Part shown: positions 7,045 through 63,279 of the stretch, in pieces
Numbering within the stretch: the first letter of the stretch is position 1
Layout: every line of letters starts with the position of its first letter
Source of the DNA: Candidatus Multivoradales bacterium
GTDB taxonomy: Bacteria; Acidobacteriota; Thermoanaerobaculia; Multivoradales; J023
Length of the DNA: 64,000 nt
Assembly (NCBI GenBank): GCA_965248925.1
Contig: CBDFLE010000006.1
Span: 736,001-800,000 of the forward strand
Direction of reading: 5' to 3'
Position numbers and translations under genes: made by a program
The notes under the pieces: generated by a model
Seen by the model: the letters and a program-made list of their open reading frames with translations, nothing else
Databases searched by the model: none
Told to the model about the DNA's origin: nothing

Positions 7045-7059
7045 CCCAAAACACCTCGC

Positions 7060-7587: not shown

Positions 7588-7712
7588 GTTTGCAACATCA
7601 TAGCCAAAGGGCACGTCAACCGCCAAGTATCAAACCTCTCCGTCGAGTGCGAGCTACTGCCTTCCCCCTGGCCGAAACCCCTCCTCAGCCGTGCTATTAT
7701 AGAAGGTCACCG

Positions 7713-34365: not shown

Positions 34366-34410
34366 CAGGTGAGCCCCTTCAGATACTGAAACTGGCGGCC
34401 ACCTCTGCCT

Positions 34411-35186: not shown

Positions 35187-35194
35187 CGATCAAA

Positions 35195-35719: not shown

Positions 35720-35865
35720 TGAAGCCGCCGTACTAGCCCTCGATTGCTCCGTCGAATCGCACGATTCAGGGCTCGGCGCAAGAGAGCGGGCGTCGCTCCG
35801 CTGCCCATCCGTCCAAACGGCCCGACTGTGCTCAGTGCCCCTGTTGTCATAATAGCGCACCCTAG

Positions 35866-37362
35866 CAGCCCGTGGTGAAAGTCCCGATTACGGCCGTCTT
35901 GGCGATCTTCCCTGGTAGAATCTTTCCACCCGAGGGAGGTAGCGACCATGGCGATGGGCAGGCGAAGCAATCGAAGACAGCGGCAGCTCTGGGTGGAAAC
36001 CCAGGCGCTGGCCAAGTCCCCAGGACATCCTTTCTACGAGCGTCTGTCCAAGATTCTCGACAAGCACGGTTTCGATCGCTTTATCGAGGAGCAGTGCGCG
36101 AGGTTTTACGCTACGAGGATGGGACGGCCTTCGCTGGCGCCCGCGGTGTATTTTCGGTTGCTGTTGATCGGCTTCTTCGAGGGTATCGACTCTGAGCGAG
36201 GTATCGCATGGCGGCTTGCGGATTCGATGACTCTGCGCGACTTTCTGGGCTTCGAACTCTCGGACCAGACCCCGGACCATTCGACGCTCTCTCGGACCCG
36301 TCGCCTGATCGATCTCGAGACCCATGAGGCGGTGTTTGCTTGGGTTTTGCAAGTACTGGCGAAGGCTGGCTTGCTCCGGGGAAAGACGCTGGGCATCGAT
36401 GCGACGACCCTCGAGGCGAACGCGGCGATGCGCAGCATCGTGCGTCGAGACTCGGGCGAGAGCTACGAAGAGTTTCTCACGCGCCTGGCCGAGGCTTCGG
36501 GTGTGGAGACCCCGACGCGAGCGGATCTGGCGCGTTTTGACCGCCAAAGGAAGAACAAAAAGACGTCGAACGGCGACTGGAAGAACCCCCACGATCCCGA
36601 CGCCAAAGTCACGCGAATGAAGGATGGGCGGACGCATCTGGCGCACAAAGCCGAGCATGCGGTGGATATGGAGACGGGTGCGGTTGTGGCGGTGACGGTG
36701 CAACCTGCAGACCGAGGGGACACGTCGAGCCTAGAGCGGACGTTGGATGAAGTCGCTGCGGTGCTGGAAGATGTCGTTGAGAATTCGGAGGCTGGCGATC
36801 ACTTGAGCGAGAAAGTCCGTTCAGAGCTGGTGGCTGACAAGGGCTATCACAGTAACGCGGTCATGAAGGCACAGCGTCAAGGGAAGATTCGAACCTATAT
36901 TTCGGAACCGGATCGAGGCCGACGCAACTGGTACGGCAAAGAGGCGGAGAAGCAAGCGGTGTATGCCAACCGTCGACGGATCAAGGGTCGTCGAGGCCGC
37001 GAGCTGTCGCGGCGTCGAGGAGAGAAAGTAGAACGCACCTTTGCCCATTGCTACGAGACTGGCGGTATGAGAAGGACCCACCTTCGAGGTCACGACAACA
37101 TCCGCAAAAGGTTGCTGATTCACATCGCGGGATTCAATCTTGGGCTGCTGCTTCGTCAAATGTATGGAGCCGGCACTCCACGGGCCCTTCAGGGCTTTCT
37201 TTCGGCTCTCGAACAGGGCTTTCGCGCCGTATGTAGCTTGCTGAGCTGGCTTCTGCCGCACGAGAGCGGATATTGGCCACTAAGATCTTCGATCAGACCA
37301 CCTGCGCCGGCTGGCCTCAATTTAGGCCACATTTTGTAGAAACGGACTTCTGCCACGGGCTG
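35866..37362 (+). mobile_element. IS5/IS1182-family insertion sequence (1497 bp)
   Basis: IRs CAGCCCGTGGTGAAAGTCC and CAGCCCGTGGCAGAAGTCC. CTAG duplicated at 35862-35865 and 37363-37366. Confidence 0.9.
35948..37339 (+). CDS. IS5/IS1182-family DDE transposase
   Basis: GRPS, SERGI, PDHSTLSR, IDATTLEANA, ADKGY, VERTF. GGAGG RBS. Confidence 0.92.
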   Translation: MAMGRRSNRRQRQLWVETQALAKSPGHPFYERLSKILDKHGFDRFIEEQCARFYATRMGRPSLAPAVYFRLLLIGFFEGIDSERGIAWRLADSMTLRDFLGFELSDQTPDHSTLSRTRRLIDLETHEAVFAWVLQVLAKAGLLRGKTLGIDATTLEANAAMRSIVRRDSGESYEEFLTRLAEASGVETPTRADLARFDRQRKNKKTSNGDWKNPHDPDAKVTRMKDGRTHLAHKAEHAVDMETGAVVAVTVQPADRGDTSSLERTLDEVAAVLEDVVENSEAGDHLSEKVRSELVADKGYHSNAVMKAQRQGKIRTYISEPDRGRRNWYGKEAEKQAVYANRRRIKGRRGRELSRRRGEKVERTFAHCYETGGMRRTHLRGHDNIRKRLLIHIAGFNLGLLLRQMYGAGTPRALQGFLSALEQGFRAVCSLLSWLLPHESGYWPLRSSIRPPAPAGLNLGHIL

Positions 37363-40300
37363 CTAGTAGCACAGAGCCTCCAGAGCCAGCCCTGCCTTTG
37401 ATCTGCTCTTCCTCGCAACAAGTAGTGTTGAAGCAGAATAGTTCAACGAGGTCAGCGCCAGCGTCACACTGATAGTCAAAGTAATCACCAAGGCTCCAAT
37501 TCTCTATAGAGCTGTCCAAGATGTTACTATTGCCAGATCCTGGAAACCCTATGGAGTATCCGCCGTTTGGGTCGTAGAGATAAGGGGCTGGTGAGTTGCA
37601 CTGAGGGTCGCTCCCGCCGCCGCATCCGCCAGCAATAAAAAGCGCGGAATGGGAGCCTGCATAGATATTGGTCCCGCCAATTCCTGCCACTTTCACTCCA
37701 GAAATCAATACGCAGGTTAGAAGACCTAGCGGATCTGATAAGACTGTTGGAGATTGTCTGCCGTATGAGAATCCATTGGACCCTGAAAGCAGAATGCTGA
37801 CAGGGTCTTGTCGTTTGAAGGTGCCGCCTATTGCGTCATACCATCGGTGGACATTGTAGTGAAGACCGCTGGCCGTCTCCCAGGCTGCGTCTTCCCACTG
37901 CCCAGGGAAGCGCAAGAACACCTCATTGCTTCCAGCGGCCGCATAGTCCTGCCCAAACGGCTCGAACCCTCCGGTCCATGCTGGTGAACCCGCTCCGGTT
38001 GAAACGAGAACAGGTGTCCCAAGATGGTTGGCGGTTAGGTTGCTAAGGCCGCTGCCGTCAGTTTGAGCCACAGGTCTACGATCGAAGGAGAACACAGCGT
38101 TCGCACCGCTGGTACCGATGCGCCCTAGCAACATTCCGCCGGAGTTGTAGGATGCTTGGGTTGAGATCTGGGCCATGCAGCTACTCGCTCCCGGATCACC
38201 CCAAGCGCTGATGTCGCCGCTTTCAAAGCCATCGCAGAAGAGAGCGTTGCCCGAAGTGTCGGGCTCGCGGCCGACCGCTTGGCGTAGGTAGCTGCGACCG
38301 TCGTACAGCATTTCCGAGCTGGTCTGTGCCGAAGGGTGATCGATGGCTGACAGGCGGCCTGCATCATCGAAGGTGTAGGTCACGGGGTCGCCGTTCTCGT
38401 CGACGCCGATTTGGTTGCCGGCTGCATCGAAGGTGTAGACGCGACTGCCACCCGCACCGAGTGCAATCTGATCGAGTTTCGCGGTGTTGCCGCTCGCGGC
38501 AGCGTTGGCGAGGTATTGATAGCTGTCGGTGGCGCCGTCCCGCGTTTCGCTGAGACGGTTGCCGATTTTGTCGTAGGCCCAGGTCAGAGCGCCCCAAGGG
38601 CCATCGCCCTGGGTAAGGAAATACTGGTAATCCTGGTGGGCGTAAATGCGGTTGTTCAGCGGGTCGAGCAGATCACCGATGGCGGTGATGTTGCCGACCC
38701 CATCGGTGGTGTAGTCCCAGTCGAGCAGGGTGCCGCCGGGGCCAACGGCTGTGATGCTGGCGGGCCGGTAACGGCTGTCGTGCTGGCGGCTTTCGGTGAC
38801 GCCATTGCCGCGTGTCAGCTGGCGCAGTGGGCCAATCGGTTGGTAGAGGGCTCCCGTGACGATCGATTGGATGCCCTGGCCTGGCACCTCGGCGTCGAGG
38901 GTCAGGTGACGGTCAGCGTGATCGAATGTGTAGATTGCCCTCACTCCACCAGGATACAGGATCTCGCTCTTGTTGCCGTTGGCGTCGAAGGCGTAGGCCA
39001 GCTCGCCGTCTTGAGTCATGCGCCCGAAGCGATCGAATTTGTAGTCGATCGGCTGGCCATCTCGTTCGATCTGGGTGAGTCGGCCGAGGCTGAAGGGCAC
39101 CTGCGGATCATCGTAGGTGTAGGTCACGTCGAGGGTGTCGTCGGGGCAGTCGACCAGGGTGACCCGATCTAGCTCATCGAGAGTGCGCTGAGTGGCAATG
39201 CTGCGATCGTCGATGGTCTGGGTGAGTCGGCCGTGCTCATTGTACAAATGGCTTGTCACGCCAGATACCTCGGAGGTCTCGCCGGTCAGCAGATCTCGAT
39301 CGCTGTAAACGTAGCTGGTCACTGTGCCTTCGGCATCAGTGACCGCGGTCAGATGATCCTGAACGTCAAAGCCGTAGGCCGTTACGGCTTGGCCACCTGC
39401 TGCGCCGCCGAATGGCTGGCTGACGGTGATCAATCGGTCGAGTGGGTCATAGGCGTAGAGCGTACTGGCTGGCGCAGATTGACCCGCCGATGGATGGTTG
39501 GCGTCCCAGAGGCGTTCGATGTCACCATCGCAGTTGTAGGCGTACTCGGTGATCGCCTGCTCGGGGCTGCCCGCGCCTTCGATCATCTGGTCGAGATGAC
39601 AGCGGGTCGAGTACAGGTAATCGGTAGTCGACGCACTCGTCCAGCTCGCGCCGTCCCAGCTTTGTAGCTCTTCGCGAACCCGGTGACCGAAGCTATCGAG
39701 GGTGTAGAAGGTGCGCTCGATGTGGCTGCCGGGCAGGTCATCGGGCTTGCGTTCGATCGAGGCAAGTCGGCCTGCGGAATCGTAGGAATATTCGAGCACG
39801 TTGCCGCGCGGAAGGACGGTTTGGAAGAGATCGCCAAAGACCGTGTAGCGCTGCTCAGTGATCAGGTCTTCGGCCAGTTCCGTGCCTTTCTGGATGCTGA
39901 ACAGAACACGATTGAGCGGGTCGTACTGCGTTTCGCTGGCTACCCCGTTGGGGTCGGTGACTGAAGTTCGGCGGTTGAAAGGGTCATAGCCGAAGAGAGT
40001 GCTACCGATTAGCGGATCGGTGCGACTGGCCAGCACCAGGCCGCCACGGGCAGCGTCCCAGGCGCTGGTGGTGACATCGGCGGTGCCATAGCCGGGTGAA
40101 TCGCGGTCTTCTGGCTGGCCCTCGGCGGTGTAGGTGGTCGTGGTGGTGTAGCTGAAGACCTGGCCGTCTTCTACCCCTTCGTCGATCCGGTCGGTGGCGT
40201 TGCCCTGGCCGCTGAGGGTGAAGGTAGTGCGGCGGAAATCGAGGGGGTTGCCGGTGGTCGAGGGACGCTCGATCTCGGTGATCAGCGCCGGGTAGGTGAG

Positions 40301-42444
40301 GTCGCGCTGCCAAGTGGTCTCGCGCTCCTCCGCCGTGCCCAGAGCTTCGACACGGGAGATTGCTTGGCCGTTGGCGTCGTAGGTGGTCAGGGTCGTGGTG
40401 CCGCCGCCATCGATCTGGCGAGTGGGGCGCAGGGGGTGCGCCGGATCTTCATAGAACAGCCGGCTGTTGGGGCCAGTGCCGCAGCTCGGGCAAGAGCCTT
40501 CGAGCTGCTCCAGGCGAGGCTTGCGGCTCTCGGAGTCGCGACCCAGGGTGTAGGTGGAGATCTCGCCCATCGGGTCGGTGACCGTGGTGACCATGGGCAG
40601 CTGGGGATCGTCGAAGCTCATCGACCAGCGATCGACGGCGCCAGCGTCGTTGAAGTTAGCGGCGCCTTTCCACATTTGCACTACATTGCCAAATGGGTCA
40701 TAGGCCCAGGAGCCCGCGATCCGCTCGCTAGCGTTTGTACCCGCCAGGCTCATTCGGGTCATGTAGCCCGGCAAGGTTGGGTCATCGTAGAGGAAAACCC
40801 AGGCGGTGCCGTCGGGTCGGTCGATGCGGGTGAGGTCTTGGCCGGTGTAGGTGTAGCCCCAAGTGCGGCTGGTGGTGCTGTCGATGCCGGGTGGTCGAGG
40901 ACCATAGGCCGGTGTCGTCGAATTGCATCAGGGTGCCGTCTAGATCGAGCAGGGTCCAGCCGGTCGGGGTCTTGGTCAGGGTGCGGTACTCATCGCTGGG
41001 AATCGTGCGGTCGTAGTCCCCATCCATGTCCAAGTCCGTAAAGCGACGGAAAGTAGCGTAGCGAGTGAGCAGCCAGACGTTGCTGTCGTCGGGGTCGCGA
41101 GCGATTCTCTCGGCGTAATCGTGGCTCCAATAGCGCCCCAACTCGGCGGTGATGCCGGCTGAGCCGGGGTAGGTCGGATGGCCAACGCCTCCCGCGTGGT
41201 AGCGCAGTAGGGCGCCGGGGCCGCTCTGCGGCGGCGAGGCGCCTCCGCCTCCACCACCGGCGCTACCGCCTATTCCGCTGCCACCACCGACGCAAGAGGA
41301 GCATTCTTCATCTTCCGGGCAGCCGCTAGGCGGGGGCGGGGGTGGACAGAGGGGCGACAGGCTGAAGTCGACTACTTGGGTGGTTTCTTTCGGGCAATGG
41401 GGACAGAGGCCGAAGGCACAGGGACAGGCGGTGGCGGTGATCGTGTAGCTGGCCATCAGGTCGCTGCAAGAGCTGGTGATGCCCCAGCTCAAGGTACCGT
41501 GATCTTCCTCGATCACCGCGCCCGAGAGACCGCAGGTGCCCAGGGTACCGCCGCCGCTGGGGGTCACCGTGACGGTGGCGAAGCTGTACAGGAAGCCCGA
41601 GGCGCTGGGATCGTTCTGGTGGTTTCCGGCGAAGTCGATCGGCACTTCGATGGTGATGGCACAGGATTCGATAGCCGGGTCGCAGCCAGCCTCGGGGGTG
41701 AAGGTGGCGCCGGAGATGACCGGCGTGTAGCAGCGGGAGCCGGTGGAGCAGTTCGAGGGTTGGTCAGCGAAGAGTCCTTGTTCGAGGTAAGTGAGGACGC
41801 CGCTGCAGGAGGTGCCGGCTTGGGCGTTGAAAGCGATGACGGCGATAGCGATGTTCACGATCGGACTCCTGAGCTGCATCTGGATACTCTCCTCGCTGGT
41901 TTGGCTCTCCTCGCAGATTTTTAGCTAGCTTCCATTCTCAGTTTCTGTGCCTTTCTCTTTTCTTGGCGATCTTCGCCAGATTCGCTGCTGGATGACGGCG
42001 TTAGCTCTTTGGTTCACGGCGGGGGGCCGATCCCGTGACTAAGAGTTGTCCAGAGAATACACTAAATACAGAGATTAATCTCTTTGGGGTGGTGATTCTC
42101 TAATCTGTACTTCGGCAAGTTGAGTTCAATGCCTCCTCGCGGTTTGGCGCTTGATGGTGTCTGACCACGGCCAGCGGACGGTTTCGCGCCGCGCATCTGA
42201 ACTGCGATTGCCTGACCCCGGCCCTGCCGTAGGCTGAGGCCACGATCCCCCTTCCAAGAAGGCCGGGAGGATCGCCCAACACCCCGCTGCTGGCGTCGCT
42301 ACGCTGGCGGCCAGCACCTCATGGAGCGCTGGGCGCTCCGGTGGGGGAAGGAGTACCAGATGAGTGCAACTAGAACAGAGATCTCAGGACTCTTGGATAG
42401 GTCGCCGCAGCACGGCATGATCATTACTCCGAGCGGCTAGCGCC

Positions 42445-46238: not shown

Positions 46239-48014
46239 TCAGCCGGCATAGATCGAGTCGATCACCACTGCCCAATTCTCTTCCACCACCCGACGTTTTA
46301 CTTTCAAGGTCGGGGTCAGCTCGCCAGCCTCCAGCGACAAGGACCGGGGTAGTACCCGAATCACTTTGACTTGTTCGACCTTGGCCAAGTGGCTGTTGAC
46401 CTCGGCCAATCCGGCGGCCAACTGGCGTTCGACTTCGACATGGGTAGGCAATTCCTCGACCTCGACACCGAGCTTGGTCGCCAGATCCGCGGCTCGGTCT
46501 GGGTCGAGGGTCAGCAAGGCGGAGATGAACTTGCGCCCATCGGCGATCAACACGGCGTCGCCCACCAGCTCGATCTGCTTGAGTGCCGACTCGATGTTGT
46601 TGGGGGCGATATTCTTGCCGCCAGAGGTGATCATGATCTCCTTCTTGCGCCCGGTGATGCTCAAGAAACCGTCTGCGAAGACCCCCAGGTCTCCAGAGTG
46701 CAACCAGCCATCCGCATCGAGCACTTCGGCGGTGGCGGCTTCTTCTTTGAGGTAGCCCAGGAACACATTCGGCCCTCGCACCCACACCTCTCCGTCTGCC
46801 GCCAGCCGCACCTCGACTTCGGGCAGTGGGGGGCCGACGGTACCAAAGCGGGTCTTCCCCGGCCGATTCCAGGTGGTCGGCCCGCAACCTTCGGACTGGC
46901 CGTAGACCTCATGGATGACAATCCCCAGACCGGCGAGGAAATGCAGCACTTCAGCGGCGATGGGCGCCGCCCCGGACGCACAAATCCTTGCCTGATCAAG
47001 CCCTAAAGCCCGCTTCACCTTGCGTTGTACCAGGCGCTCGGCAAGGCGTTCTCGGAGCCCTAGCCAAGCGCCCGGATCGAGGCCGCGGTTACGCGCCTCG
47101 GCGGACCGCTGCGCCACCCACATCGCCCAGCTGACCAGCCGGGCCTTGATCCCCCGAGTTCCTGCCATGCGCTCACTCAAGGCGGTTTGCATTCGCTCCC
47201 ACACCCGTGGCACGCCGAATACCACCGTCGGTCGCACCTCTTTCAAGTTGTCCAACATCCGCTCGATCGACTCGGCGTAGTACACCGGATAGCCAGCGTA
47301 GGTCGGTACATGGATCGACAACATCTGCTCGGCGATGTGAGCCAGAGGTAGGTACGACAACGCCCGATCTGTCGCTCTGGCGGCCAGCAAGCCGGCACAA
47401 ATGCGCGAAGTATCGAGCAAATTCGCATGCGAAAGCATCACCCCTTTGGGCGGGCCCGTGGTGCCAGAGGTGTAGATCAGGCTGGCTAGCTGGTCGGGGT
47501 CGAGGGCCGCGCGCCGGGCCTGGAGAAGCTCTTCGGACAACGAGCCCCCATGCTCTAGTAGCTGGCGCCAGGAGATCGCCAGTGGATCGTCGGGAGTCTC
47601 GTCCTCCTCCATCACCACTACCCGACGCAACGCCGGCAGCTGATCTAGGACCTGCTCGACCTTGCGCCATTGCTCGCCGTTCTCGACCACCACCACAGCC
47701 GCCTCGGCGTGGGCTAGAACGTAAGCCACCTGGCTCGGCGCATTGGTGGTGTAGACCCCGGCCGCCGCGCCCCCGGTGGCCATCGCCGCCAAAGCGCCCA
47801 GGGTCCATGGCGGACGATTGAAGCCCAACAAGCCGACACTGGAACCGGGGCCGACGCCAAAGTCGGCGAAGGCTCGTGCCGCCAGCTGCACCTCAGCCTG
47901 GCAACGACGCCAGGATGTCGGCTGCCAGATGCCGCCTTGTTTAACGAAATAGGCAGGATCATCAGGTCGCCGGGCAGCGTGATGGTCTAGGCGGTCAAGG
48001 ATCGTCGTGGTCAT
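46239..48014 (-). CDS. long-chain fatty acid-CoA ligase (AMP-binding)
   Basis: YTSGTTGPPKG, YLPLAHIAE, YGQSE, GWLHSGD, GRKKEIMITSGGKNIAP, ELTPTLK. Confidence 0.92.
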   Translation of the reverse strand: MTTTILDRLDHHAARRPDDPAYFVKQGGIWQPTSWRRCQAEVQLAARAFADFGVGPGSSVGLLGFNRPPWTLGALAAMATGGAAAGVYTTNAPSQVAYVLAHAEAAVVVVENGEQWRKVEQVLDQLPALRRVVVMEEDETPDDPLAISWRQLLEHGGSLSEELLQARRAALDPDQLASLIYTSGTTGPPKGVMLSHANLLDTSRICAGLLAARATDRALSYLPLAHIAEQMLSIHVPTYAGYPVYYAESIERMLDNLKEVRPTVVFGVPRVWERMQTALSERMAGTRGIKARLVSWAMWVAQRSAEARNRGLDPGAWLGLRERLAERLVQRKVKRALGLDQARICASGAAPIAAEVLHFLAGLGIVIHEVYGQSEGCGPTTWNRPGKTRFGTVGPPLPEVEVRLAADGEVWVRGPNVFLGYLKEEAATAEVLDADGWLHSGDLGVFADGFLSITGRKKEIMITSGGKNIAPNNIESALKQIELVGDAVLIADGRKFISALLTLDPDRAADLATKLGVEVEELPTHVEVERQLAAGLAEVNSHLAKVEQVKVIRVLPRSLSLEAGELTPTLKVKRRVVEENWAVVIDSIYAG

Positions 48015-48087: not shown

Positions 48088-49221
48088 TCAGCCATACAGT
48101 TCGGAGTAGGTCCGTACTTGGTCGAGAATCTCCTCTTCGCTAGCAAATCGTCGGGGGAATGCCGCGCCAACGGCAGCGGCAATATCACTCAAGTCGTGCT
48201 CACCATTCATTCGCTGCAACACCAGAGCGAGCACCTGGGCATCTGGGGAAAGACGCGGCTGGTACTCGGGGGTGCGCTTTCGCAGCCGCTGCGGCGACAG
48301 GGGCCGGCTCCAAAAGCCGCTTTGATCGAACTTCCGCCGCAGTCCTGTCTCACTCTGCAGCTGGGTCTGCCAGCGCCAAATATAGTCACCCGCGCCGGGC
48401 ACCGCTTGCAAGTCGACCCGCAGCTGGTCGCCGGGGGATAGCGCGACCGGTTCGGGGAAGGGAAAGAAACCCTGGCCGTAGAGTCGCTCCGAGCCCGGCG
48501 CCGAGCTGTAGCCCACGCCTTTGACCAGAGAAGTCTCAAACCACAACGCCAGGCCATGGGCTAGCGCGGCTTGCTCGATCCGCCATTCGAGACTGCCGGC
48601 ACAACCCTGGTGGCGTAGCTGGTAGTAGTCCAGAGTCGCCCAACAAAGCGGCTCAGTGAGGCAAGCCGAAGCGGGCAAATGTACCCGTGTCCAGCTGTTC
48701 AACGCCATCTGCCGGGCAGCGGCCAATTCGAGATCGAACGCCGAGTCGTCCCAGCCAGCGAGCAACTTCGCGAACGGCTCCGGTGCTGACACCACCGACC
48801 CCCAGAGGCGGTCTTGCGCCGGGATCAACACTCCATCCGGGCGCAGGAAACGCTCTTGCGCATCGCTAATCGTCGCCAAATGGCGGCCAAAGCAAGGTAG
48901 CGTGCCGCGCAAGTCGGACAGCACTACGTCCACCTGCTCGCTGGCTTTGAGTGCGGTGGAGAGCCCCTGGATCAGCTCGACCCGATCTGCCAAGCCATTG
49001 CGCGCCACCAGCTGCCGCGCCAACCCGATGATGTCGTTGGGCTCGACCGCAATCACTTTGGCGGCACCGAGACGCGCCGCCACCATGGCGAAGACTCCCG
49101 GACCAGTGCCGATCTCGAGAACCACCGACCCCGGCCGCACCGTTCGCCGCAATGCCTCGATATAGGCTTCCCGGCGAACTTCGTCAGTCAACATATGACC
49201 GAAGTCGCGTAAGTTGTACAT
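48088..49221 (-). CDS. PRMT-fold SAM-dependent methyltransferase (lasso cluster)
   Basis: MLTDEVRREAY, VLEIGTGPG, VIAVE, VDVVLSD, FLRPDG.LIP, AHGLALWFE. Confidence 0.85.
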   Translation of the reverse strand: MYNLRDFGHMLTDEVRREAYIEALRRTVRPGSVVLEIGTGPGVFAMVAARLGAAKVIAVEPNDIIGLARQLVARNGLADRVELIQGLSTALKASEQVDVVLSDLRGTLPCFGRHLATISDAQERFLRPDGVLIPAQDRLWGSVVSAPEPFAKLLAGWDDSAFDLELAAARQMALNSWTRVHLPASACLTEPLCWATLDYYQLRHQGCAGSLEWRIEQAALAHGLALWFETSLVKGVGYSSAPGSERLYGQGFFPFPEPVALSPGDQLRVDLQAVPGAGDYIWRWQTQLQSETGLRRKFDQSGFWSRPLSPQRLRKRTPEYQPRLSPDAQVLALVLQRMNGEHDLSDIAAAVGAAFPRRFASEEEILDQVRTYSELYG

Positions 49222-49222
49222 A

Positions 49223-49264
49223 TTCAGTGCATCTCGTTCAATGCATCTCGTTCAGTGCATTTCG
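49223..49264. repeat. 3 x 14-bp tandem repeat
   Basis: TTCAGTGCATCTCG / TTCAATGCATCTCG / TTCAGTGCATTTCG, immediately 5' of the methyltransferase ATG. Confidence 0.85.
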
Positions 49265-49282
49265 CAGGTTTCGCTCGCCATC

Positions 49283-50254
49283 TTAACGCGACTCCAAATC
49301 GCTCTCGATCGCCACCGCGGCCGCCGCCAAACGGTCGAAACCACTGGGGTAGATCAACCGACGACAGAGGACCTGCCGCACCAAGTGCGACAGTCGCAGC
49401 AAGCGCTGCCGGCCCAGGCCCACCGCTTCGACTACGTAGGGGGTAAAGGAGTGGCGCAGCAGCTCGCGTAGCGCCGCCGCCGGCCGCAAGGTTTCGATCC
49501 GCGGTAGGTCGAGATCGGCCGAGGAACGCCGGTCGACAATGTAAAGAGCGTCGAGGACCGCGGAGTCGGCCGCGAAAAGACCCAGATCGTCGGCGGAGCC
49601 CACATCGACCCGGCGCTTGTCGTGCAGGGAGTGGACACTCGGTAGATGCCGCCAGGCGCCGCAGAAATGGGCCGCTTGATCAGGCCACATGCGCATCTGA
49701 GGGTAACCGGCGTGCCCCAGGAAGCTGCCCCGCAACTCCTCCACCGCCAGGATGTCGTCGCTCATCAGGCGGTGCCCTCGGAGCAGAAGGGCTGCTGCCA
49801 AACCAGTCTTACCCCCCGCGTTGCCCGACAAGAACCCCACAACCCGGTCGCCGATCCGCACCGCCGAGGCGTGCAGGGCCAAGACCCCGCGACGCTCAAG
49901 GACATAGCTCAAGACCGCGCCGAGAAAGTGAATCTCGAGTTCCGCCACCTCCCCTTCGGGATGCGGCAGGCACTCGATGAGTTTGTCCTCGACGCGAAAG
50001 TCAGCGACCCGCGGAATGCGCATCCACTGCACCTGGCCAGCAGCGAATAGCTGGCACCAAGGCTGACCATCTCGACGCTGGTAGGGGCTCGAATAGAGTA
50101 GCTCGCCAAGGTCAGCAGAATCTGGCGCAACCCCCTTTAGGACAGTGAATTGAAGGTCAGCCCGTAGGCCCCCGCATTCCGTCAAGCGGTTGGCAAATGG
50201 GAATTCGGTTTGAACCCGCAAGCCGTAAACGCGATAGGTCGGCACAGCGATCAA
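49283..50254 (-). CDS. HPr-kinase-like lasso peptide kinase
   Basis: YRVYGL, LHASAV, Walker A-like SGNAGGKT, MSDD, YPQMRMWPD, DKR. Confidence 0.82.
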   Translation of the reverse strand: MIAVPTYRVYGLRVQTEFPFANRLTECGGLRADLQFTVLKGVAPDSADLGELLYSSPYQRRDGQPWCQLFAAGQVQWMRIPRVADFRVEDKLIECLPHPEGEVAELEIHFLGAVLSYVLERRGVLALHASAVRIGDRVVGFLSGNAGGKTGLAAALLLRGHRLMSDDILAVEELRGSFLGHAGYPQMRMWPDQAAHFCGAWRHLPSVHSLHDKRRVDVGSADDLGLFAADSAVLDALYIVDRRSSADLDLPRIETLRPAAALRELLRHSFTPYVVEAVGLGRQRLLRLSHLVRQVLCRRLIYPSGFDRLAAAAVAIESDLESR

Positions 50255-51465
50255 CCAGTAACCGGCGATTCGACCAAAAGCGCTCGCCTAAGCAGGTCGT
50301 CGACCAAGGCGCCGCAGTCATCCTCCAAGCTCTTTCGATCCACCTCGAAGTCTGCCGCCAGCTGGTCTAGAGCCACTTCGAACCGACCATGCTCCAAGAT
50401 CCCGGCCCATAGACTGGCCGCCACTCCTCGCAGCTCATAGCAGCAGCCATCTCCAGCGGCGACAATTGTGGTCTCGCTATCGGGGGACACCGCGAGGACC
50501 TTGGCGGCAGGCCGTAGGGGACCCGCGGCACATCCCGACGATCGGTGAATCCGCGGTCGGCGTCCAGCAGCCGGCCAGCAGCCGTTTTTCGAACAAAACC
50601 GTGGCGGCGCCATCCGCCAAGCGTTCTCAGTCACTTTCCGTACCGAGTTCCACAGCTGACGCTCGGGTTCGTTCCAGGGAAAGCAAAAAGGCACCGGGCT
50701 GCCCAGCCAATAACGCCCCGCGCTATCTCGCGCCTGCCAATGTTGATGCCAGGCCAGGGCCTCACCACCGAGGTCGACCAGCGGCAGATCTCGCGCCGCC
50801 AGGCAAGCGGCAACCCGCGGCTCCGCCTCCCGGCAGGCAGTCCGGAAGTCGGGGTGGGATACCAGATGGGCAAAGATCACCTGCGGTGCCGCCAGAGTGG
50901 CCAGGAAACTGTTGAAACAAGCGCCACTGATCGCGCAATCGTCGACCACCACGCAGGGGCCTTCACCGTCGAGCTCTGAGGCCGCCACCAATTGATCAGC
51001 CCGCAATCCCAGAGCACTGGCCAACAAACCGGTCACCACCAGACCGCCACGGGGTACGGCAACAAATCTGGCCCGCGCCAGCTGATCGCCGAGACGAATT
51101 CTGAGCTGCTCGGCAAGACGTTGGCAGTCGTTCAGAACGTCCGCGAAATCGAAGTAGAGAAAGTGCCGGCAAGCCGAGTCCAATTGCCCGGCTTGAGCTT
51201 CGATACCAGCTAGCGCGGCCCTATCAAAGCGGCCAAATGCAGCGATTCTCGGCGTTGGAGTCAGCTTGGCGGCCCAGTGGGTTGCCGGCAACAACGCCCA
51301 CTCGGGACTGTGGGCAATCGCCTCTAACAGACCATCCAAAGCAGCCGCCGGCGCGCCTAGGCCCAAGGTACCACCGTAGGCGGTCAACGCCTCAGCCGAT
51401 AGCTCCAGGGCAACACAGGTCCAACCGGCCGATGAAGCCGGTGAAGCGGTACCAGACTGGATCAT
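50251..51465 (-). CDS. type I phosphoribosyltransferase fused to C-terminal PqqD/RRE domain
   Basis: VAVPRGG, PRPP loop VVVDDCAISG, FPWNE. C-terminal YELRGVAASLW...LAADFEVDRKSLEDD...LVDDL.RRALL matches the RRE pattern. Confidence 0.8.
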   Translation of the reverse strand: MIQSGTASPASSAGWTCVALELSAEALTAYGGTLGLGAPAAALDGLLEAIAHSPEWALLPATHWAAKLTPTPRIAAFGRFDRAALAGIEAQAGQLDSACRHFLYFDFADVLNDCQRLAEQLRIRLGDQLARARFVAVPRGGLVVTGLLASALGLRADQLVAASELDGEGPCVVVDDCAISGACFNSFLATLAAPQVIFAHLVSHPDFRTACREAEPRVAACLAARDLPLVDLGGEALAWHQHWQARDSAGRYWLGSPVPFCFPWNEPERQLWNSVRKVTENAWRMAPPRFCSKNGCWPAAGRRPRIHRSSGCAAGPLRPAAKVLAVSPDSETTIVAAGDGCCYELRGVAASLWAGILEHGRFEVALDQLAADFEVDRKSLEDDCGALVDDLLRRALLVESPVTG

Positions 51466-51497
51466 CTCGGTACTCGATCCGGCGCCACGACGCGGAC

Positions 51498-51665
51498 TCA
51501 AACTCCCATCGTACCGCCGAGCGGGAAGTCCTCGATGCCACCCATCGGCCCCTGGGTGATCTCGGTGATCGCGCCCCACTCGACGAGTTCTGGCGCGCGA
51601 TATTGGCGCTTCTTGCGTACCGATTCTCCACCATCTAGGCGCTTCGGTGTTTTCTCACAAGTCAT
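51498..51665 (-). CDS. lasso peptide precursor (55 aa)
   Basis: AAGGAG RBS. Leader YRAPELVEWG...T(-2)Q. Core GPMGGIEDFPLGGTMGV with G1 and E7/D8. Confidence 0.9.
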   Translation of the reverse strand: MTCEKTPKRLDGGESVRKKRQYRAPELVEWGAITEITQGPMGGIEDFPLGGTMGV

Positions 51666-51683
51666 CGGACTCTCCTTCAATTG

Positions 51684-53651
51684 TCAAGCCGCCTCAGCAC
51701 TGCCAGAGGAGTTCTCACTCGCGACTGGCGCAAGTCCACTCCTCAGCCGGCGAGGCTCAGCTGTTTGTCCAGTCAAGAGCGAATCGTAGTGGCTGCGCAG
51801 CCACAGCTCGAAGAGGATCGGGTTGACCACCGCCCGCAGGGCCGCCGAAGGCCATTGTTTGCGGTACTGCTCGTAGGATACCCGCAGCCGCGCGCCGTCG
51901 ATGTAGCCCAGCTCCTCCGCCAAGGGGGCCTGCAGCAGGCTGCGAACCTGCATGGCCTCCATATCGCGCAGGCCTAGATCGACGAACCTGCCGAGCCGGG
52001 TCTTGTGAGCACGCTGGCGAACGCTCTCCGGTAGATAGCCAAGCATGGCGTTGCGCAACAGAGGTTTGGTCGCGGCCACGGAAATCAACTCGCGAGACGG
52101 AATCGAGAGCACGAACTCGACCAAGCGCCGATCCAGATAGGGATGGCGAACATCGAGCGGTTGCCGCCGCGGCCGTCGTTCATACCACTGAGTGGCGTAG
52201 GGGTGAGCGCCAAATCCGACCGCAGTGTCGTAAACGTCTTGCCGCCCGTGCTCGAGAAATCGCAGCCCACTAGGCGTTCCTTCGAGACGCTGCTCGAGGT
52301 TGGTGCGGCGAGCAAAATCAGGAGCTATCCAGGCTGGTAGCGAGCCGCCGTCGGAGCGACCGGCCAGCCGCCGCAGGAAACGATCTAGAGTTGGCGGCAG
52401 CAAAGGCCGCAGCATCCAGCCGTAGAACGCTCGCGACAGCGGCAGTTTCACCCGCCGGGCATGTTGAGCCAGCTCCCGGCCAGCCGACCCATCGCGTCGC
52501 CGCAAGCGATCGGCGTAGACTCGCGGACTACCACAGAGCAACTCATCACCACCATGGCCGGTCAGGAGGATATCGATACCCCGCTCGCGGAGACGATCGG
52601 TCAGCTCCTCGTAGCATCCTTCCCAAACCGGCAAGAAAGGACTCTCGAGGCTGGGCGAGAAGGCACTGTCACCAGCCGCCAAGTACCAACGTCGCTCAGC
52701 CTGAATCTCGACACTCTGCAGACCAAGATCACTGGTCATGGTACGGATGTAGGGACTCTCATCACAATCGAGCCGTGTGCCGAAAACGAACGAGCCAGCA
52801 ACTAACCCTGGGCTGCCGTCAACTCCCACCACCCGCCGAGCAACGGCCGCCACTGAGCAGGAATCCAGCCCACCACTCATGGCGATTCCGACTTGCCCGG
52901 CTGAGCCCACCAAGCGAGCGGCCACTGACTGTTCCAGCAGGCTGGCGAAATGTTCGGCGTACTCCTCGCTCTTCTGGTAGGTGACGCGATGCTCGGGATC
53001 GATATCCCAATAGCGCTCAACCCGCACCCCTTCGTGGCTGGCGATCAGGCGATGTCCCGGGGGAAGGGCGCGGACCTGGCGAAAGAAGGTGCGGTCTTTG
53101 GCCGGCATGTGGCCGCAGAGGAAGTCCGCCACCGCAAGATCATCAAGGTCATTCGAGACCGCCGGATGGCTGAGCAGCTGCTGCGCCTCGGAAGCGAAAC
53201 AAATCAGCGGCCCGAGATGGGTGAAACAAAGCCCGCGGACCCCAAGCTGATCCCGAGCCGCGAAGAGCCGCTGCTGCTCTCCATCCCAAATAGCAAAAAC
53301 AAAATCGCCCAGCAACACCTCGACACAGTCGATACCCCAGCGGCGATAGGCCGCCAGAATGAGTTCGGCATGGGTTGCCTCTCTCCCACCGAGTTCTTCC
53401 GCGAGTGCCCGGCAAAGTTCTTCGCCATTGTCGATTCGCGCATCGGCCACCAGATGCAGGTCACCACGCCGCAACGGCTTGAGAGGCTGCTGGTGGCCTG
53501 AAGTTGCACTGATCGCGAAACCTCCGCGCTCGAAAGAGCAGTAGCCGATTCCACCCACCGAGCGGTTGGGGACGGACTCGGCCATCACCTGCAAGTAGTC
53601 ATCACCCTCGGGCAGACCAGCAAAGTCCACCAGACCAGCCAGCGCTCCCAT
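51684..53651 (-). CDS. lasso peptide cyclase (asparagine synthetase-like, C protein)
   Basis: No Cys1 (MGALAG), DARIDN, ARDQLG, SGGLDS, TGHGGDE, RHPYLD. TGATG overlap with B2. Confidence 0.92.
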   Translation of the reverse strand: MGALAGLVDFAGLPEGDDYLQVMAESVPNRSVGGIGYCSFERGGFAISATSGHQQPLKPLRRGDLHLVADARIDNGEELCRALAEELGGREATHAELILAAYRRWGIDCVEVLLGDFVFAIWDGEQQRLFAARDQLGVRGLCFTHLGPLICFASEAQQLLSHPAVSNDLDDLAVADFLCGHMPAKDRTFFRQVRALPPGHRLIASHEGVRVERYWDIDPEHRVTYQKSEEYAEHFASLLEQSVAARLVGSAGQVGIAMSGGLDSCSVAAVARRVVGVDGSPGLVAGSFVFGTRLDCDESPYIRTMTSDLGLQSVEIQAERRWYLAAGDSAFSPSLESPFLPVWEGCYEELTDRLRERGIDILLTGHGGDELLCGSPRVYADRLRRRDGSAGRELAQHARRVKLPLSRAFYGWMLRPLLPPTLDRFLRRLAGRSDGGSLPAWIAPDFARRTNLEQRLEGTPSGLRFLEHGRQDVYDTAVGFGAHPYATQWYERRPRRQPLDVRHPYLDRRLVEFVLSIPSRELISVAATKPLLRNAMLGYLPESVRQRAHKTRLGRFVDLGLRDMEAMQVRSLLQAPLAEELGYIDGARLRVSYEQYRKQWPSAALRAVVNPILFELWLRSHYDSLLTGQTAEPRRLRSGLAPVASENSSGSAEAA

Positions 53652-54088
53652 CAGGCATTCGCCTCCCGAACGGCGGCATTCTCCAGCGGCGGATAATCTC
53701 GCTCGACAGTGCCAGACTCGGCAACGGGCCGACCTTCGACCTCCACCCAGGCGTGCGCCTCGAGCTGCTGTCCAACGGTGCGAGCGCCGATCCGCAACAC
53801 CGAGTCGACACCACGGCGAGCCAACAAGTAGCGCAGAGTCACCGAGCGTTCCAGACAACGCGCCGGCAGTAGATGATGCCGGCTGGCGACGCCCACGGCC
53901 CAAGCTGTCAGGGGGATAGGTGCCGCGGGGCCTATCCCCGAGGCGCCGCGCACCACGGGCTCCAGTCGCGCCAGCGAAACACCGCAACGCAATGCCACGC
54001 TAAACACTCCCAAGCCAATCCATGCCGAAGCGAGAGACCGCAGCTCGCGACGACCGAGCGAGGAAAGTTTGTAGAGATTAGTCAGCAT
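53651..54088 (-). CDS. lasso peptide leader peptidase B2
   Basis: CLERS catalytic Cys, LRIG, AHAWVE. Confidence 0.93.
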   Translation of the reverse strand: MLTNLYKLSSLGRRELRSLASAWIGLGVFSVALRCGVSLARLEPVVRGASGIGPAAPIPLTAWAVGVASRHHLLPARCLERSVTLRYLLARRGVDSVLRIGARTVGQQLEAHAWVEVEGRPVAESGTVERDYPPLENAAVREANA

Positions 54089-54458
54089 CGAGGGTCACCA
54101 GGCTCTGGCCCGCGAGTCGGTCGACAAAAATCATCAAATCGTGCTTCAAGCGTTCAGGTTCGACCTCGAACTCATCGAGTAAACTTCTATAGGTTGCTTC
54201 TAGCTCTCCGTTATCCGCCAACAACTGCCACATCCTGGTGCCAACATCGTCGAGCCCGAAATAACGGCCGGTCTCGAGCTGCAAGAGCACCGCCTCACCT
54301 CCCAGGTCACGGAAGAGCACTTGCTCGGAAATCCTCACGCAACCCGCCAGTTTGCCTGACAACCCTGCCGCGGAAGACCCGCTTTCTGAATATGCAAAAC
54401 CCACACCAGACCCCCGTCTGAGATTTTCCGCCCGTATCGCGGATCCTCCGCCCTTCAC
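54078..54458 (-). CDS. lasso peptide RRE / PqqD (B1); start uncertain
   Basis: GEAVLLQLETGRYFGLDDVGTRMWQLL...EFEV...DL..F...L. Confidence 0.92.
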   Translation of the reverse strand: MKGGGSAIRAENLRRGSGVGFAYSESGSSAAGLSGKLAGCVRISEQVLFRDLGGEAVLLQLETGRYFGLDDVGTRMWQLLADNGELEATYRSLLDEFEVEPERLKHDLMIFVDRLAGQSLVTLDAD

Positions 54459-60370: not shown

Positions 60371-60975
60371 GAATCTCTCTCCTAAGGCTCTAGACGGAAA
60401 ACTGACCCTATGGGTCAGCAAAGCAACGTAAACAATTGAAAATAAAGACGGTTGCTGCAGCCGGCCTAAACAAGCCCCCCAGCTCCTCAAGAGCCGGCCG
60501 CGTTGGGTTCCCCCCAATTCCTCGCAAGGATCTCGCGCCGGCGTCAGGAAAGCGTCAGGAGAACAACTTCTCGCGATAACGAGTTTTCTTGCAGACAGCA
60601 GAAGGGGAGGCTCAAAGGTGAATCAGCTAGTCAACAAATCTGGAATGCCACCAGCTTGTGCGCGGTAACGCGCCATCCGCAGCGCGCCCAGGGCATGCGG
60701 ACCGTGGCGACGAATGCTAACGAGCAGCGGGTAGGGAACTGAACAAACCCTTGCGGCGTGACCGGCCGAGGAATTCCTGGCGAAAAGGTCTCTTCTATCT
60801 GCTACTTGGCAGCCGGTTGTAGGGACGCTAGCATTAGCGGCAAGTCGCCGCCTCGAGTAGATCGCCAAAGAGCTTGATGAAGGGATCCTCGAGGCAAGCA
60901 CTACTATTTCACCCCGAAGTATCCAGTACCGAGGTCTGTGGGGGCCGGTATCAGAGACTGGGTGGGGAGAGAACT

Positions 60976-63279
60976 TTGAATCGGCTCACGGTTCGCTGCT
61001 TTGGAGAGTTCGACGTGCGGCTTGGCGACCGGCGGGTTACCGGCTTCGAATCGCAGAAGGTGCGAGCTTTGCTGGCTTATCTGGCGGCCCGTCGCGAGCG
61101 CGCCTTCAGCCGCGATCATCTGGCCGGCATGTTGTGGCCAGAGAAGAGCGAAGAGGCTGCCCGACGCAACCTGCGCCAAGCGCTCTACAACCTCAAGTCT
61201 GTGCTCGGTGCTGGCGACCCGGATTCGCAGCCTATCCTCTCGACTCACCGTCAAGTACAGCTCAGCACCGACGCTGACTTCTGGGTCGATGTCGAAGCCT
61301 TCGAAGTCGCTCTGCGGCTGAGCGCCTTCGAGACCCGGCCGGCACCCCATCGATTAGCCGAAGCCGTGGCGCTCTATCGCGGCGACTTCCTCGGCGATTT
61401 CCTGCTCAAGGACAGCCCTGCCTACGAAGTCTGGCTGGTCGCTGAACAGGAGCGGCACCGGGAACGAGTGTTCGAAGCCATGCGCCAGCTGATCGAGAGC
61501 TACATGACTCGCGGCGAATATCGGCTCGGAACCCAATATGCCCTGCGCTTGGTGGGACTGGATCCGCTTTCAGAGAGAGCCCATCGCTATCTGATCCAGC
61601 TCTACACCTTGGCCGGTCGCCGCAGTCGCGCCATGGCGCAATACGAAGACTTGTGCAAGCTGCTCGACCATGAACTCGGCGTTGAGCCAATGGACGAAAC
61701 CCGCGACCTGTACCAGGCTGCGTTGTCGAGAAAAGAAGCCAGGCGAGAAGTGGAGACGGGGCGCGAGGCCAACGGACCGATCATTCCCTTGGTGGGCCGC
61801 GCAGATTCCTACGCCGCCTTGCAGAAAGCGTGGCAGGAAGCGCAACAGGGGCAGGCGCAGCTCACTCTGATGACCGGCAAGCCTGGCGTCGGCAAGACGC
61901 GATTGGTGAAGACCTTTCTCGATGTCGCCAGCTCCGAGGAGGGCAACACCATCTTGCAAGGTCGTGCCAACGACCAGATACCGACTCCTTTCCAGCCATT
62001 CTCCCAGGTGCTGCGCAATGCCGTCGCCACCGACTCCCTTTTGGTCGAGCAAACCTTAGCCAGCACTCCGGTCGAGATCCTGGCCCAGATTGCTCGACTA
62101 GTGCCCGAACTACACGCTCTGCGCCCCGCACTCCCAAAGTTCGACAGCATCGAGTTCGCCTACCAAGGAGAGCAGCTATTCGCCGCTGTTGCCGACTTCT
62201 TTGGCCGCCTCACCAACGATGGCGACTCGCCCCGCACTCTGATCTTGATGCTCGACGATCTTCACTACGCGCTGCCCGAATCCTTCGAGCTGTTGCGCAA
62301 AATCATCACCAGCAATGCTGAGCGGCCACTGTGGGTCATCGCCATCTTTCGCCAGTCAGAGGCCGCTGGCAGCGGCATAACGGAGATGGTTGAGCGGCTA
62401 CAAGACGTTCCCTGCTCAACTATCGAGCTCGGCCGCCTAGCCGACTCCGGAGTAGCCGATCTGGCGGCGGCGTTGGTCGGCGCTGACCAAGCGGCAGAGC
62501 TGGCGGAATTCTTGGCCAAAAACGCCGAAGGGTTGCCGATCAAGCTGGCGGAGTGGGTCAACTTCCTCTGGGATGAGGGAGTGATGGTACCGGCGGAAAG
62601 TCAGTGGCGACTGCTCAAACCGCTGGCCAAGCTCAATATTCCAGCCAAATGTGAACTCCCCGAACTGCTGGTCAGAAGGCTGTTGCGGCTACCCAATTCC
62701 ACCCGCCGGCTAGCGGTACTGGCAGCAGTGATGGGCAAGCTGTTCGACGCCGAGATGCTGCGGGCCGCGGCCGACGAACATCCAGCGGTGATCGAGGTGG
62801 GCCTGGAAGTGCTGCTCGAACGCTGGCTAGCACGCAAGCTGGCCGAAGCCTGGACCACCAGCCACCGCGAGAAAGACCTGGTGATGTGGCAGCGGGGAGT
62901 GCGCAAAGGCAGCTTCGAGTTCAGTCATGAGGCGATTTGGCATGCCTTCTACCATTCGGTGAACATCCAGCGCCGGCGGGCGATGCACGGCGAATTGGCG
63001 GTGGCTCTAGAAGAGTCGCAACCCAACGCGAACGAAATCTACCCTGAGTTGATCGGCAGTCACTACTGGTGGGCCGGGCAACAGGACAAGGCCGCAGAGC
63101 CGCTGCTAGAAGCAGGCCGCAGAGCACAGGACTTGCAGGCCAACGACACCGCCAAGTATTACTTCAACCTCGCCCTCGACGCCCTCGACGAACTGCTCGA
63201 GAGTGGCCGCAAAGGGCCCTGGCTAGGCCAGCGCAATCAAGCAACCCGAGGACTCGAAGAGCTCAATCAACGTTCGTAG
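60976..63279 (+). CDS. SARP/AfsR-type regulator (wHTH-BTAD-AAA ATPase)
   Basis: KVRALLAYL, SRDHLAGMLWPE, LYRGDFL, DPLSERAH, ELGVEP, GKPGVGKT, LDDLH. TTG 60976 follows GGAG. Confidence 0.9.
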   Translation: MNRLTVRCFGEFDVRLGDRRVTGFESQKVRALLAYLAARRERAFSRDHLAGMLWPEKSEEAARRNLRQALYNLKSVLGAGDPDSQPILSTHRQVQLSTDADFWVDVEAFEVALRLSAFETRPAPHRLAEAVALYRGDFLGDFLLKDSPAYEVWLVAEQERHRERVFEAMRQLIESYMTRGEYRLGTQYALRLVGLDPLSERAHRYLIQLYTLAGRRSRAMAQYEDLCKLLDHELGVEPMDETRDLYQAALSRKEARREVETGREANGPIIPLVGRADSYAALQKAWQEAQQGQAQLTLMTGKPGVGKTRLVKTFLDVASSEEGNTILQGRANDQIPTPFQPFSQVLRNAVATDSLLVEQTLASTPVEILAQIARLVPELHALRPALPKFDSIEFAYQGEQLFAAVADFFGRLTNDGDSPRTLILMLDDLHYALPESFELLRKIITSNAERPLWVIAIFRQSEAAGSGITEMVERLQDVPCSTIELGRLADSGVADLAAALVGADQAAELAEFLAKNAEGLPIKLAEWVNFLWDEGVMVPAESQWRLLKPLAKLNIPAKCELPELLVRRLLRLPNSTRRLAVLAAVMGKLFDAEMLRAAADEHPAVIEVGLEVLLERWLARKLAEAWTTSHREKDLVMWQRGVRKGSFEFSHEAIWHAFYHSVNIQRRRAMHGELAVALEESQPNANEIYPELIGSHYWWAGQQDKAAEPLLEAGRRAQDLQANDTAKYYFNLALDALDELLESGRKGPWLGQRNQATRGLEELNQRS

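Follow-up and report, generated by a model that had tools for sequence, protein, structure and literature searches.

A lasso peptide gene cluster from a Multivoradales bacterium with a predicted phosphoribosyltransferase-fold–RRE fusion, a kinase and a PRMT-fold methyltransferase

Several described lasso peptide systems phosphorylate their precursors. The kinases PadeK, ThcoK and SyanK act on a conserved C-terminal Ser (PMC8498205, PMC9266682), and the paeninodin, ThcoK and SyanK systems combine a split B1/B2 and a cyclase with an HPr-kinase-like enzyme that works on the linear precursor and carries a His/P-loop Lys/Asp-Asp motif. BsfK from Bradymonas sediminis phosphorylates an internal residue, Ser3, in a reaction accelerated by BsfB1 (PMC10368454), a RiPP recognition element (RRE; RiPP, a peptide made by the ribosome and modified after translation). 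In the case of pseudomycoidin, the kinase PsmK acts first and the nucleotidyltransferase PsmN then adds a hexose to the phosphate (PMC8498205). The linear polyphosphorylated peptide (LPP) clusters of Bacillota have a module made of a second RRE and an HprK-like kinase, which may lie beside or apart from a lasso cluster (Popov et al., PMC13381572). The subject here is a gene cluster in a 64,000-nucleotide stretch of DNA (‘the window’; positions 736,001 to 800,000 of contig CBDFLE010000006.1, assembly GCA_965248925.1) from Candidatus Multivoradales bacterium, whose genome comprises 7.98 Mb in 6 contigs. Seven genes on the minus strand, at 48088-54458 of the window (∼6.4 kb), encode a discrete RRE (B1), a leader peptidase (B2), a macrolactam cyclase (C), a precursor, a predicted fusion of a phosphoribosyltransferase (PRTase) fold with a further RRE, a putative peptide kinase and a methyltransferase with the fold of protein arginine methyltransferases (PRMTs).

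The locus shares the split B1/B2, the cyclase and the kinase motif with the paeninodin, ThcoK and SyanK systems, whereas its precursor ends in Val where theirs end in Ser. No PRTase-RRE is described for those systems in the text available, and the window differs further in having neither a match to the PF14907 nucleotidyltransferase family nor an ABC (ATP-binding cassette) exporter among its scanned open reading frames (ORFs), namely 39 ORFs with lengths of 110 aa or more and the cluster genes. With the Bsf system it has in common a lasso kinase that would act on an internal residue and an identical spacing of the kinase motif, the acceleration by an RRE being described there. Bsf is modified at Ser3, behind a leader with Ile(-2); in the window, Thr stands at -2 of the leader, the candidate site (T14) is in the tail, and the RRE beside the kinase belongs to the fusion with the PRTase fold. 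Pseudomycoidin, with its two-step logic of kinase then sugar, is the closest analogy for the kinase and the PRTase domain together; a nucleotidyltransferase adds a hexose there, whereas here a PRTase fold would use phosphoribosyl pyrophosphate (PRPP). The LPP clusters share the module of RRE and kinase, and can be likened to the cyanobacterial loci with a CHAT-domain protease, a kinase and the fusion that are described below. They differ in having a SipW-like peptidase, an NTP transferase and, as far as the available account goes, no PRTase fold, whereas the window has a full lasso operon with a single precursor.

Gene identities were assigned by matches to Pfam and NCBIfam models, with scores set against each model's cut-off. 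Judged from its genes alone, the locus is a real and complete lasso peptide gene cluster. B1 matches PqqD over residues 55-121 (54.1 bits, cut-off 23.4, E 1.9e-14) and the lasso_PqqD_Bac model NF033536 at 54 bits, under its cut-off of 80. B2, the only B2 match in a search of the source genome, is recognised by NF033537 (lasso_biosyn_B2; 71.5 bits against 33) and by Transglut_core3 (E 2.5e-19). The cyclase exceeds the Pfam cut-offs for Asn_synthase (E 5.5e-37) and GATase_7 (E 3.3e-21), and scores 328 bits (E 1.1e-97) against the cyanobacterial-type lasso cyclase model NF033535, under the cut-off of 525. The precursor passes NF033521 (lasso_leader_L3) at 21.3 bits against 19. An earlier sequence-only reading of this DNA had described the same minus-strand row of seven genes, a complete set of lasso core machinery, a precursor with a YxxPxL leader motif and Thr(-2), and the absence of an exporter or isopeptidase. 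All seven genes are indeed present, overlapping or close to one another; the core machinery is borne out by curated models (PqqD, NF033537, Asn_synthase and NF033521), the leader carries YRAPEL and Thr(-2) ahead of the core GPMGGIEDFPLGGTMGV, all as in that reading, and the family scan of window ORFs returned neither an ABC exporter nor an isopeptidase-type family.

The gene behind the precursor encodes the protein that sets this cluster apart from the systems above. Its sole Pfam domain is a C-terminal PqqD (29.2 bits against 23.4). In a structure model predicted from an alignment with 14 relatives (pLDDT 85.0, pTM 0.82), the stretch from residue 315 to 402 can be superposed on TbiB1, a lasso RRE, with a Foldseek TMt of 0.90 and a VIA Z of 13.3 (root-mean-square deviation, rmsd, 2.5 over 88 residues). 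Residues ∼99-294 of the same model superpose on type I PRTases: the match to Escherichia coli XGPRT (4jit) has a Foldseek TMt of 0.60 with 24% identity, and that to HGPRT (5esx) a VIA Z of 12.1 (rmsd 2.7, 123 residues). Nearly all of the 90 Foldseek matches at E ≤ 1e-3 are PRTases or PyrR. The assignment of this protein as a PRTase-RRE fusion, made earlier from the sequence, agrees with the predicted structure in both halves.

The family motifs IPRGG (also VPRGG) and VVVDDCAxSG (VVVDDCAISG) align to the pyrophosphate (PPi) and PRPP loops of OPRT (2yzk), HPRT (6igs) and 1wd5, and six residues (P138, G140, G141, D175, D176 and G181) are invariant in 24 N-terminal domains from many phyla. Because both PRPP-site motifs are kept, the PRTase domain looks catalytically active. 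The Pfam family Pribosyltran gives weak matches in 9 of the 14 fusion relatives (E ≤ 1, best 7.6e-4), and PRTase-CE in 6. The domain resembles the type I group (XGPRT, HGPRT, OPRT, UPRT and PyrR) in its fold (Z 11-12, TMt up to 0.6), its PRGG-type PPi loop and its VVVDDCAxSG PRPP loop. It differs from that group in that the hood is replaced by a Trp-rich segment (CFPWNEPD...), and in its extra N-terminus of ∼98 aa and its C-terminal RRE. Residues 1 to ∼98 and the conserved Trp-rich segment are without an assigned counterpart.

The fusion is widespread. The word-index protein search that supplied the 14 relatives understates the size of the family; an exhaustive search of 1.84 billion proteins with fusion residues 1-320 as query returned 429 representatives at E ≤ 1e-3 and 390 at 1e-10. 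Among the 150 matches listed, lengths are mostly 300-430 aa, and the N-terminal domain family, as it appears in these sequences, is dedicated to the fusion architecture. A genome scan with one genome per species gave 141 pattern-matching stretches, at least 101 of which encode a fusion relative, and 80 of these 101 loci were retained for counting with iterated hidden Markov models. The loci are labelled Gemmatimonadota, Acidobacteriota, Cyanobacteria, Chloroflexota, Halomonas-group Gammaproteobacteria, Spirochaetes, Opitutia and Actinomycetota, so that at least eight phylum-level bacterial groups carry the fusion. Two further loci, L020 and L031, come from archaeal metagenome-assembled genomes (MAGs) labelled Methanoregulaceae and Methanospirillaceae.

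The genes around the fusion are also conserved. A fused RRE is present in 78 of the 80 loci, a kinase anywhere in the locus in 70 and a cyclase in 64. Where at least 1.2 kb of downstream sequence is available (67 loci), the kinase gene lies immediately downstream of the fusion in 41, elsewhere in 20 and is absent from 6. Of the 26 loci that extend 6 kb or more to either side, all have a kinase; 24 have a cyclase, 15 a B2, 14 a separate B1 and 2 a methyltransferase. As read from gene content, the PRTase-RRE and the kinase form a conserved, portable tailoring module with its own predicted leader reader. Three cyanobacterial loci (L003 at 5169-9167, L004 and L016) combine a CHAT-domain protease, a kinase and the fusion, with no cyclase or B2 within 8 kb; in L003, a small lasso-leader-type ORF stands right behind the fusion gene. 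These may represent a cyclase-less version of the module, and the pair of kinase and fusion would therefore be portable.

The related loci vary in other components. Two cyclase genes, some of them in tandem, occur in L014, L015, L017, L029, L032, L050 and L053, and two precursor genes in L020, L031 and L035. ABC transporters are found in 22 related loci and a PF14907 nucleotidyltransferase in 13. Both join the module in Nodosilinea (L012, 11326-14531) and Litchfieldella (L059, 2294-5363), and the window has neither.

The predicted kinase is recognised by family models only at sub-threshold scores: Hpr_kinase_C at 19.6 bits against 33.3 (E 6.9e-4) and TIGR04352 at 24.8 against 200 (E 1e-5). Across 20 aligned kinases, H128, G148, K149 and D167 are invariant within the motif H..GxxGGK[S/T]..DD. 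The spacing of 21 residues from His to Lys and 17 from Lys to Asp equals that of H148...K169...D186 reported for BsfK. The catalytic motif is intact, as far as the alignment tells. The window kinase is 33-42% identical to fusion-linked kinases and 24-26% identical to three kinases from clusters that have the methyltransferase only. Set against the paeninodin type, the HprK-like motif stands, with BsfK spacing, whereas the paeninodin-type site, a C-terminal Ser, is missing from the precursor.

Lasso-type precursors in 56 of the 80 loci and in the window yield 61 cores, and the precursor gene lies directly upstream of the fusion gene in 41 of the 80 loci. By-eye inspection of 15 window-like cores shows a Gly or Ser start and a common Asp at position 8; in a second group of cores, which begin with T/V/A/N-G, the Asp is at position 9. 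The ring had been given as either G1-E7 or G1-D8. Because D8, and not E7, is common to the window-like cores, the ring is predicted to be G1-D8, and G1-E7 was set aside. Beyond the ring, 43 of the 61 cores have a G-[S/T] pair no more than 8 residues past the ring acid (regular expression), conserved at 5-6 residues past it. In the window this residue is T14 in GGT, 6 past D8, and the pattern of conservation suggests T14 as the likely target of modification. The window core ends in ...TMGV, and most of the 61 cores likewise lack a terminal Ser. With so few related cores ending in Ser, the C-terminal-Ser rule known from PadeK, ThcoK and SyanK is not applicable. The window core contains no Arg and no Lys; the leader does contain Arg.

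The last gene of the row encodes a protein with class I methyltransferase domains (Pfam) and a PRMT_C match of 21.1 bits, under the cut-off of 27. A phmmer search against the Protein Data Bank (PDB) gave 73 sequences at E ≤ 0.01, the best being PRMT1 (E 2.3e-19). Its structure model (pLDDT 92.7) superposes through residues 1-303 on PRMT8 (5dst_C) with Z 34.6 and rmsd 2.0 over 301 residues, in agreement with the PRMT fold claimed for it beforehand, and the PRMT architecture of Rossmann domain and beta-barrel is present in the predicted core, residues 1-306. The enzyme thus shares its architecture with the type I PRMTs (PRMT1, PRMT8 and CARM1). The active site differs. In PRMTs, the two Glu residues of the double-E loop bind the guanidinium group. 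That loop is not kept here: SEW...YES of PRMT1 (8dur) aligns to SDL...GRH, and the family consensus SDLRGVLPxFxxH has an invariant D103 in place of the first Glu, a nearly invariant Arg (R105) after it (SDLRG) and no second Glu. By motif, the protein would not be an arginine methyltransferase; arginine is not the expected substrate because the double-E loop is missing, and the core is free of Arg. Methylation of the leader, which has Arg, may nevertheless occur.

A further difference from the type I PRMTs is a three-helix tail (∼307-377), which is found in the window and in L012 and is absent from L051 and L078. Comparison of the methyltransferase family with 17 B1 RREs by hhalign gave a probability of 0.7% and no relation of the tail to RREs; the structural match list is taken up by the PRMT domain and so is mute on residues 307-377. 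The family has at least 146 full-length relatives, and 41 of 401 sampled same-phylum genomes have a match at E ≤ 1e-20. The source genome itself holds a second, distant PRMT-like gene outside the window (C6:4095969-4096832; 30% identity, E 3e-27).

Nine regions around the best same-phylum methyltransferase matches were compared. Six are lasso clusters with kinase and methyltransferase, one has a kinase fragment where its contig stops, two are truncated in the same way, and the PRTase domain occurs in none of the nine. Since the kinase stands beside the methyltransferase in lasso clusters that have no PRTase domain, the two make up, by gene content, another recurring pair. Fusion, kinase and methyltransferase occur together again in L012 (Nodosilinea) and in L051 and L078 (actinobacterial MAGs), and in L021 with a distant methyltransferase. 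At 3-4 of 80 loci, this triple set is rare. Methionine is present in 9 of 11 methyltransferase-linked cores, where it makes up 7.5% of residues, compared with 6 of the 56 remaining cores (0.6%), with a Fisher p of 5e-6 that overstates the effect because the sequences are related. The Met-rich cores include those of the window, L012, L051, L078, L114, L116, L118 and L120, and Met often stands in S/T-M-G or G-M.

The interpretation favoured here, given close to an even chance, takes the locus as a lasso cluster of class II type that carries three accessory enzymes. Both the fused RRE and B1 would hold the YxxPxL leader of the linear precursor while the kinase phosphorylates a Ser or Thr of the core, most likely T14 of G-G-T, 6 residues past the ring Asp. 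The PRTase domain, held to the leader by its RRE, would then add 5-phosphoribosyl from PRPP (+212 Da), either onto that phosphate, as in the pseudomycoidin analogy, or directly onto the same residue. The methyltransferase would methylate a non-arginine acceptor, for which the Met sulfur, a carboxylate or the phosphate are candidates. B2 would cut the leader and C would close the G1-D8 macrolactam around the tail. A more ambitious joint version, which is unlikely as a whole, would make the fusion the first RiPP peptide phosphoribosyltransferase. The fusion and the kinase would between them attach a bulky, negatively charged phospho(ribosyl) group to the conserved tail Ser/Thr; at T14, the position at which the tail is expected to pass the 8-residue ring, this group would act as a steric plug that locks the lasso, in Gly-rich cores that are poor in bulky residues. 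The PRMT-fold enzyme would act on a non-nitrogen acceptor, the Met-rich cores suggesting the methionine sulfur and hence a sulfonium.

A number of observations weigh against the favoured interpretation. The Pribosyltran model (PF00156) scores the window fusion at 11.5 bits against a cut-off of 26.3, profile matches to solved PRTases in the PDB are weak (E 0.03-0.6), and PyrR, a PRTase-fold protein that is not a transferase, scores structurally as high as the PRTase enzymes. A separate B1 was not found in 12 of the 26 long loci, and the fusion may serve as the cluster's B1. The G-[S/T] expression misses 18 of the 61 cores, among them near-variants (GAT, GNS) and Halomonas-type cores with GGS further out, and conservation of the pair does not separate kinase action there from action of the PRTase domain. 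No exporter is present among the scanned ORFs of the window. The Met correlation counts non-independent sequences, and 2 of the 11 methyltransferase-linked cores have no Met. The Pfam score, the structural score of PyrR and the long loci that have no separate B1 would fit the main rival, in which the PRTase fold serves as an adaptor and has no catalytic role. The fusion would then be an enlarged B1 that holds the leader and docks or activates the kinase, and B2 likewise, leaving phosphorylation and methylation as the sole tailoring chemistry. This is a serious possibility, if a doubtful one. In its favour, too, an RRE speeds the lasso kinase in the Bsf system (PMC10368454), and the genes for the fusion and the kinase share 4 nt in the window and stand next to each other in 41 of 67 loci. 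The PRPP-site motifs (the RGG loop, the acidic pair and SG) are, however, invariant or nearly so in the 24 N-terminal domains, which is unexpected for a pure scaffold, and a separate B1 is kept alongside the fusion in the window and in 14 of the 26 long loci.

Two other explanations retain less weight. The kinase and the PRTase-fold domain could perform a different chemistry at the conserved Ser/Thr, such as phosphorylation and then loss of the phosphate to leave a dehydro residue, or the transfer of a nucleotide or of some phosphosugar other than phosphoribose. The conservation of that residue and the obligatory kinase are in line with this. A dehydroalanine-containing lasso peptide of a ‘hybrid’ system is cited in the accessible part of a review (PMC13352647), and the PF14907 nucleotidyltransferase accompanies the module in 13 related loci. 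The kept PRPP-type motifs favour ribose-5-phosphate as the ligand instead, and make this explanation improbable. To our knowledge, no phospho-Ser/Thr lyase has a PRTase fold. It is very unlikely that the methyltransferase, along with a neighbouring acyl-CoA ligase, is a bystander and that the tailoring set consists of the PRTase-RRE and the kinase alone. The methyltransferase occurs in just 4 of the 80 related loci and is separated from the kinase gene by 61 nt, and a ligase relative is found in 1 of the 80. Against this, close methyltransferase homologues stand beside a kinase in 7 of the 9 regions and also in L012, L051 and L078, that is, in cyanobacteria and actinobacteria, and Met-rich cores correlate with presence of the methyltransferase. 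For the ligase, the bystander explanation is probably right.

The gene starts follow from alignments and from the spacing of the genes (Table 1). B1 is given as its longest ORF, and its real start may lie downstream. The cyclase most likely starts at ATG 53651, with a 1-nt overlap with the B2 stop, because position 1 of the NF033535 model falls on residue 113 in the alignment to the long ORF. The precursor is most likely to begin at ATG 51665, which has AAGGAG 6 nt ahead of it, and would then have 55 aa instead of 60. For the fusion gene, ATG 51465 is the most likely start; it lies beyond the precursor stop and would give 404 aa. B1 and B2 overlap by 11 nt, as do the fusion and kinase genes by 4 nt, and the gap before the methyltransferase is 61 nt. 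A scan for promoters and terminators gave no signal useful for fixing the limits of the operon.

Table 1. Features of the cluster and its surroundings, in window coordinates
Feature	Coordinates	Strand	Basis or remarks
FadD11-like acyl-CoA ligase, downstream	46239..48014	-	AMP-binding E 3.9e-72; NF038343 394 bits, under cut-off
PRMT-fold S-adenosylmethionine (SAM) methyltransferase, 377 aa	48088..49221	-	phmmer against PDB, structure model
HPr-kinase-like peptide kinase (predicted), 323 aa	49283..50254	-	weak family matches, motif
PRTase-fold::RRE fusion (predicted), 404 aa	50251..51465	-	structure model, Foldseek, motifs, PqqD match
Precursor A, 55 aa	51498..51665	-	NF033521; YRAPEL and Thr(-2) in leader; core GPMGGIEDFPLGGTMGV
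C, lasso macrolactam cyclase, Asn-synthase-like, 655 aa	51684..53651	-	Asn_synthase, GATase_7
B2, leader peptidase, transglutaminase-like	53651..54088	-	NF033537, Transglut_core3
B1, discrete RRE (PqqD family)	54078..54458	-	longest ORF
SdrD_B-repeat secreted-type protein, 1951 aa	54662..60517	-	SdrD_B E 1e-104, 6 stretches; directly upstream of B1
SARP/AfsR-like regulator, divergent	60874..63279	+	Pfam Trans_reg_C, BTAD, AAA_16

The SdrD_B-repeat protein gene possibly belongs to the same transcription unit as B1, and SdrD_B-type proteins adjoin the module in 14 other loci (L002, L018, L021, L035, L037, L043, L045, L049, L056, L057, L060, L061, L069 and L076). In 7 further loci (L035, L036, L037, L056, L057, L060 and L063), a homologue of the SARP/AfsR-like gene is oriented divergently to the module, and the window gene is a candidate cluster regulator. 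On the other side of the row, the acyl-CoA ligase was considered as a fourth tailoring gene and rejected: its relative, found in 1 of the 80 loci, has 24% identity and lies on the opposite strand. The ligase is probably outside the cluster. Beside the cluster region, positions 30914-40774 of the window hold an IS21 pair (IstA-like and IstB), a DDE transposase and a 1150-aa RHS-repeat protein, and within this stretch the G+C content falls to 0.53-0.58 at 34-38 kb. The appearance is that of DNA that is mobile or was acquired recently.

The novelty of the locus is in the tailoring enzymes and not in the lasso machinery. In the open full-text literature, key closed papers aside, no link was found between lasso peptides or RREs and a phosphoribosyltransferase, PRPP or a PRMT-type enzyme; matches to ‘phosphoribosyltransferase’ concern hisZ and similar genes, and no peptide-modifying PRTase was found. 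Phosphoribosyl transfer is not among the post-translational modifications listed in the available part of a 2026 review (PMC13352647). The earlier reading did not recognise the multiply modified peptide predicted from this enzyme combination as described, and within this open literature no description was found. Standard libraries label the fusion only ‘PqqD’, and annotation pipelines built on these overlook the enzyme half of the fusion.

Antibiotic research and peptide engineering prize lasso peptides as a scaffold, and with every additional tailoring enzyme the range of what can be made from them grows. The cluster described here is compact, with seven genes and a predicted mass shift for each step. 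The calculated neutral monoisotopic mass is 1633.748 for the linear core and 1615.737 for the lasso, and the predicted shifts are +79.966 for a phosphate, +212.009 for 5-phosphoribosyl (+292 when carried by a phosphate) and +14.016 for a methyl group. If the PRMT-fold enzyme is active as proposed, it would be a case of that fold acting on a non-arginine substrate. The fusion defines a widespread subfamily of lasso loci, and if it does place phosphoribose onto a peptide, this would be a modification for which no report was found in RiPPs and a new use of a fold from central metabolism.

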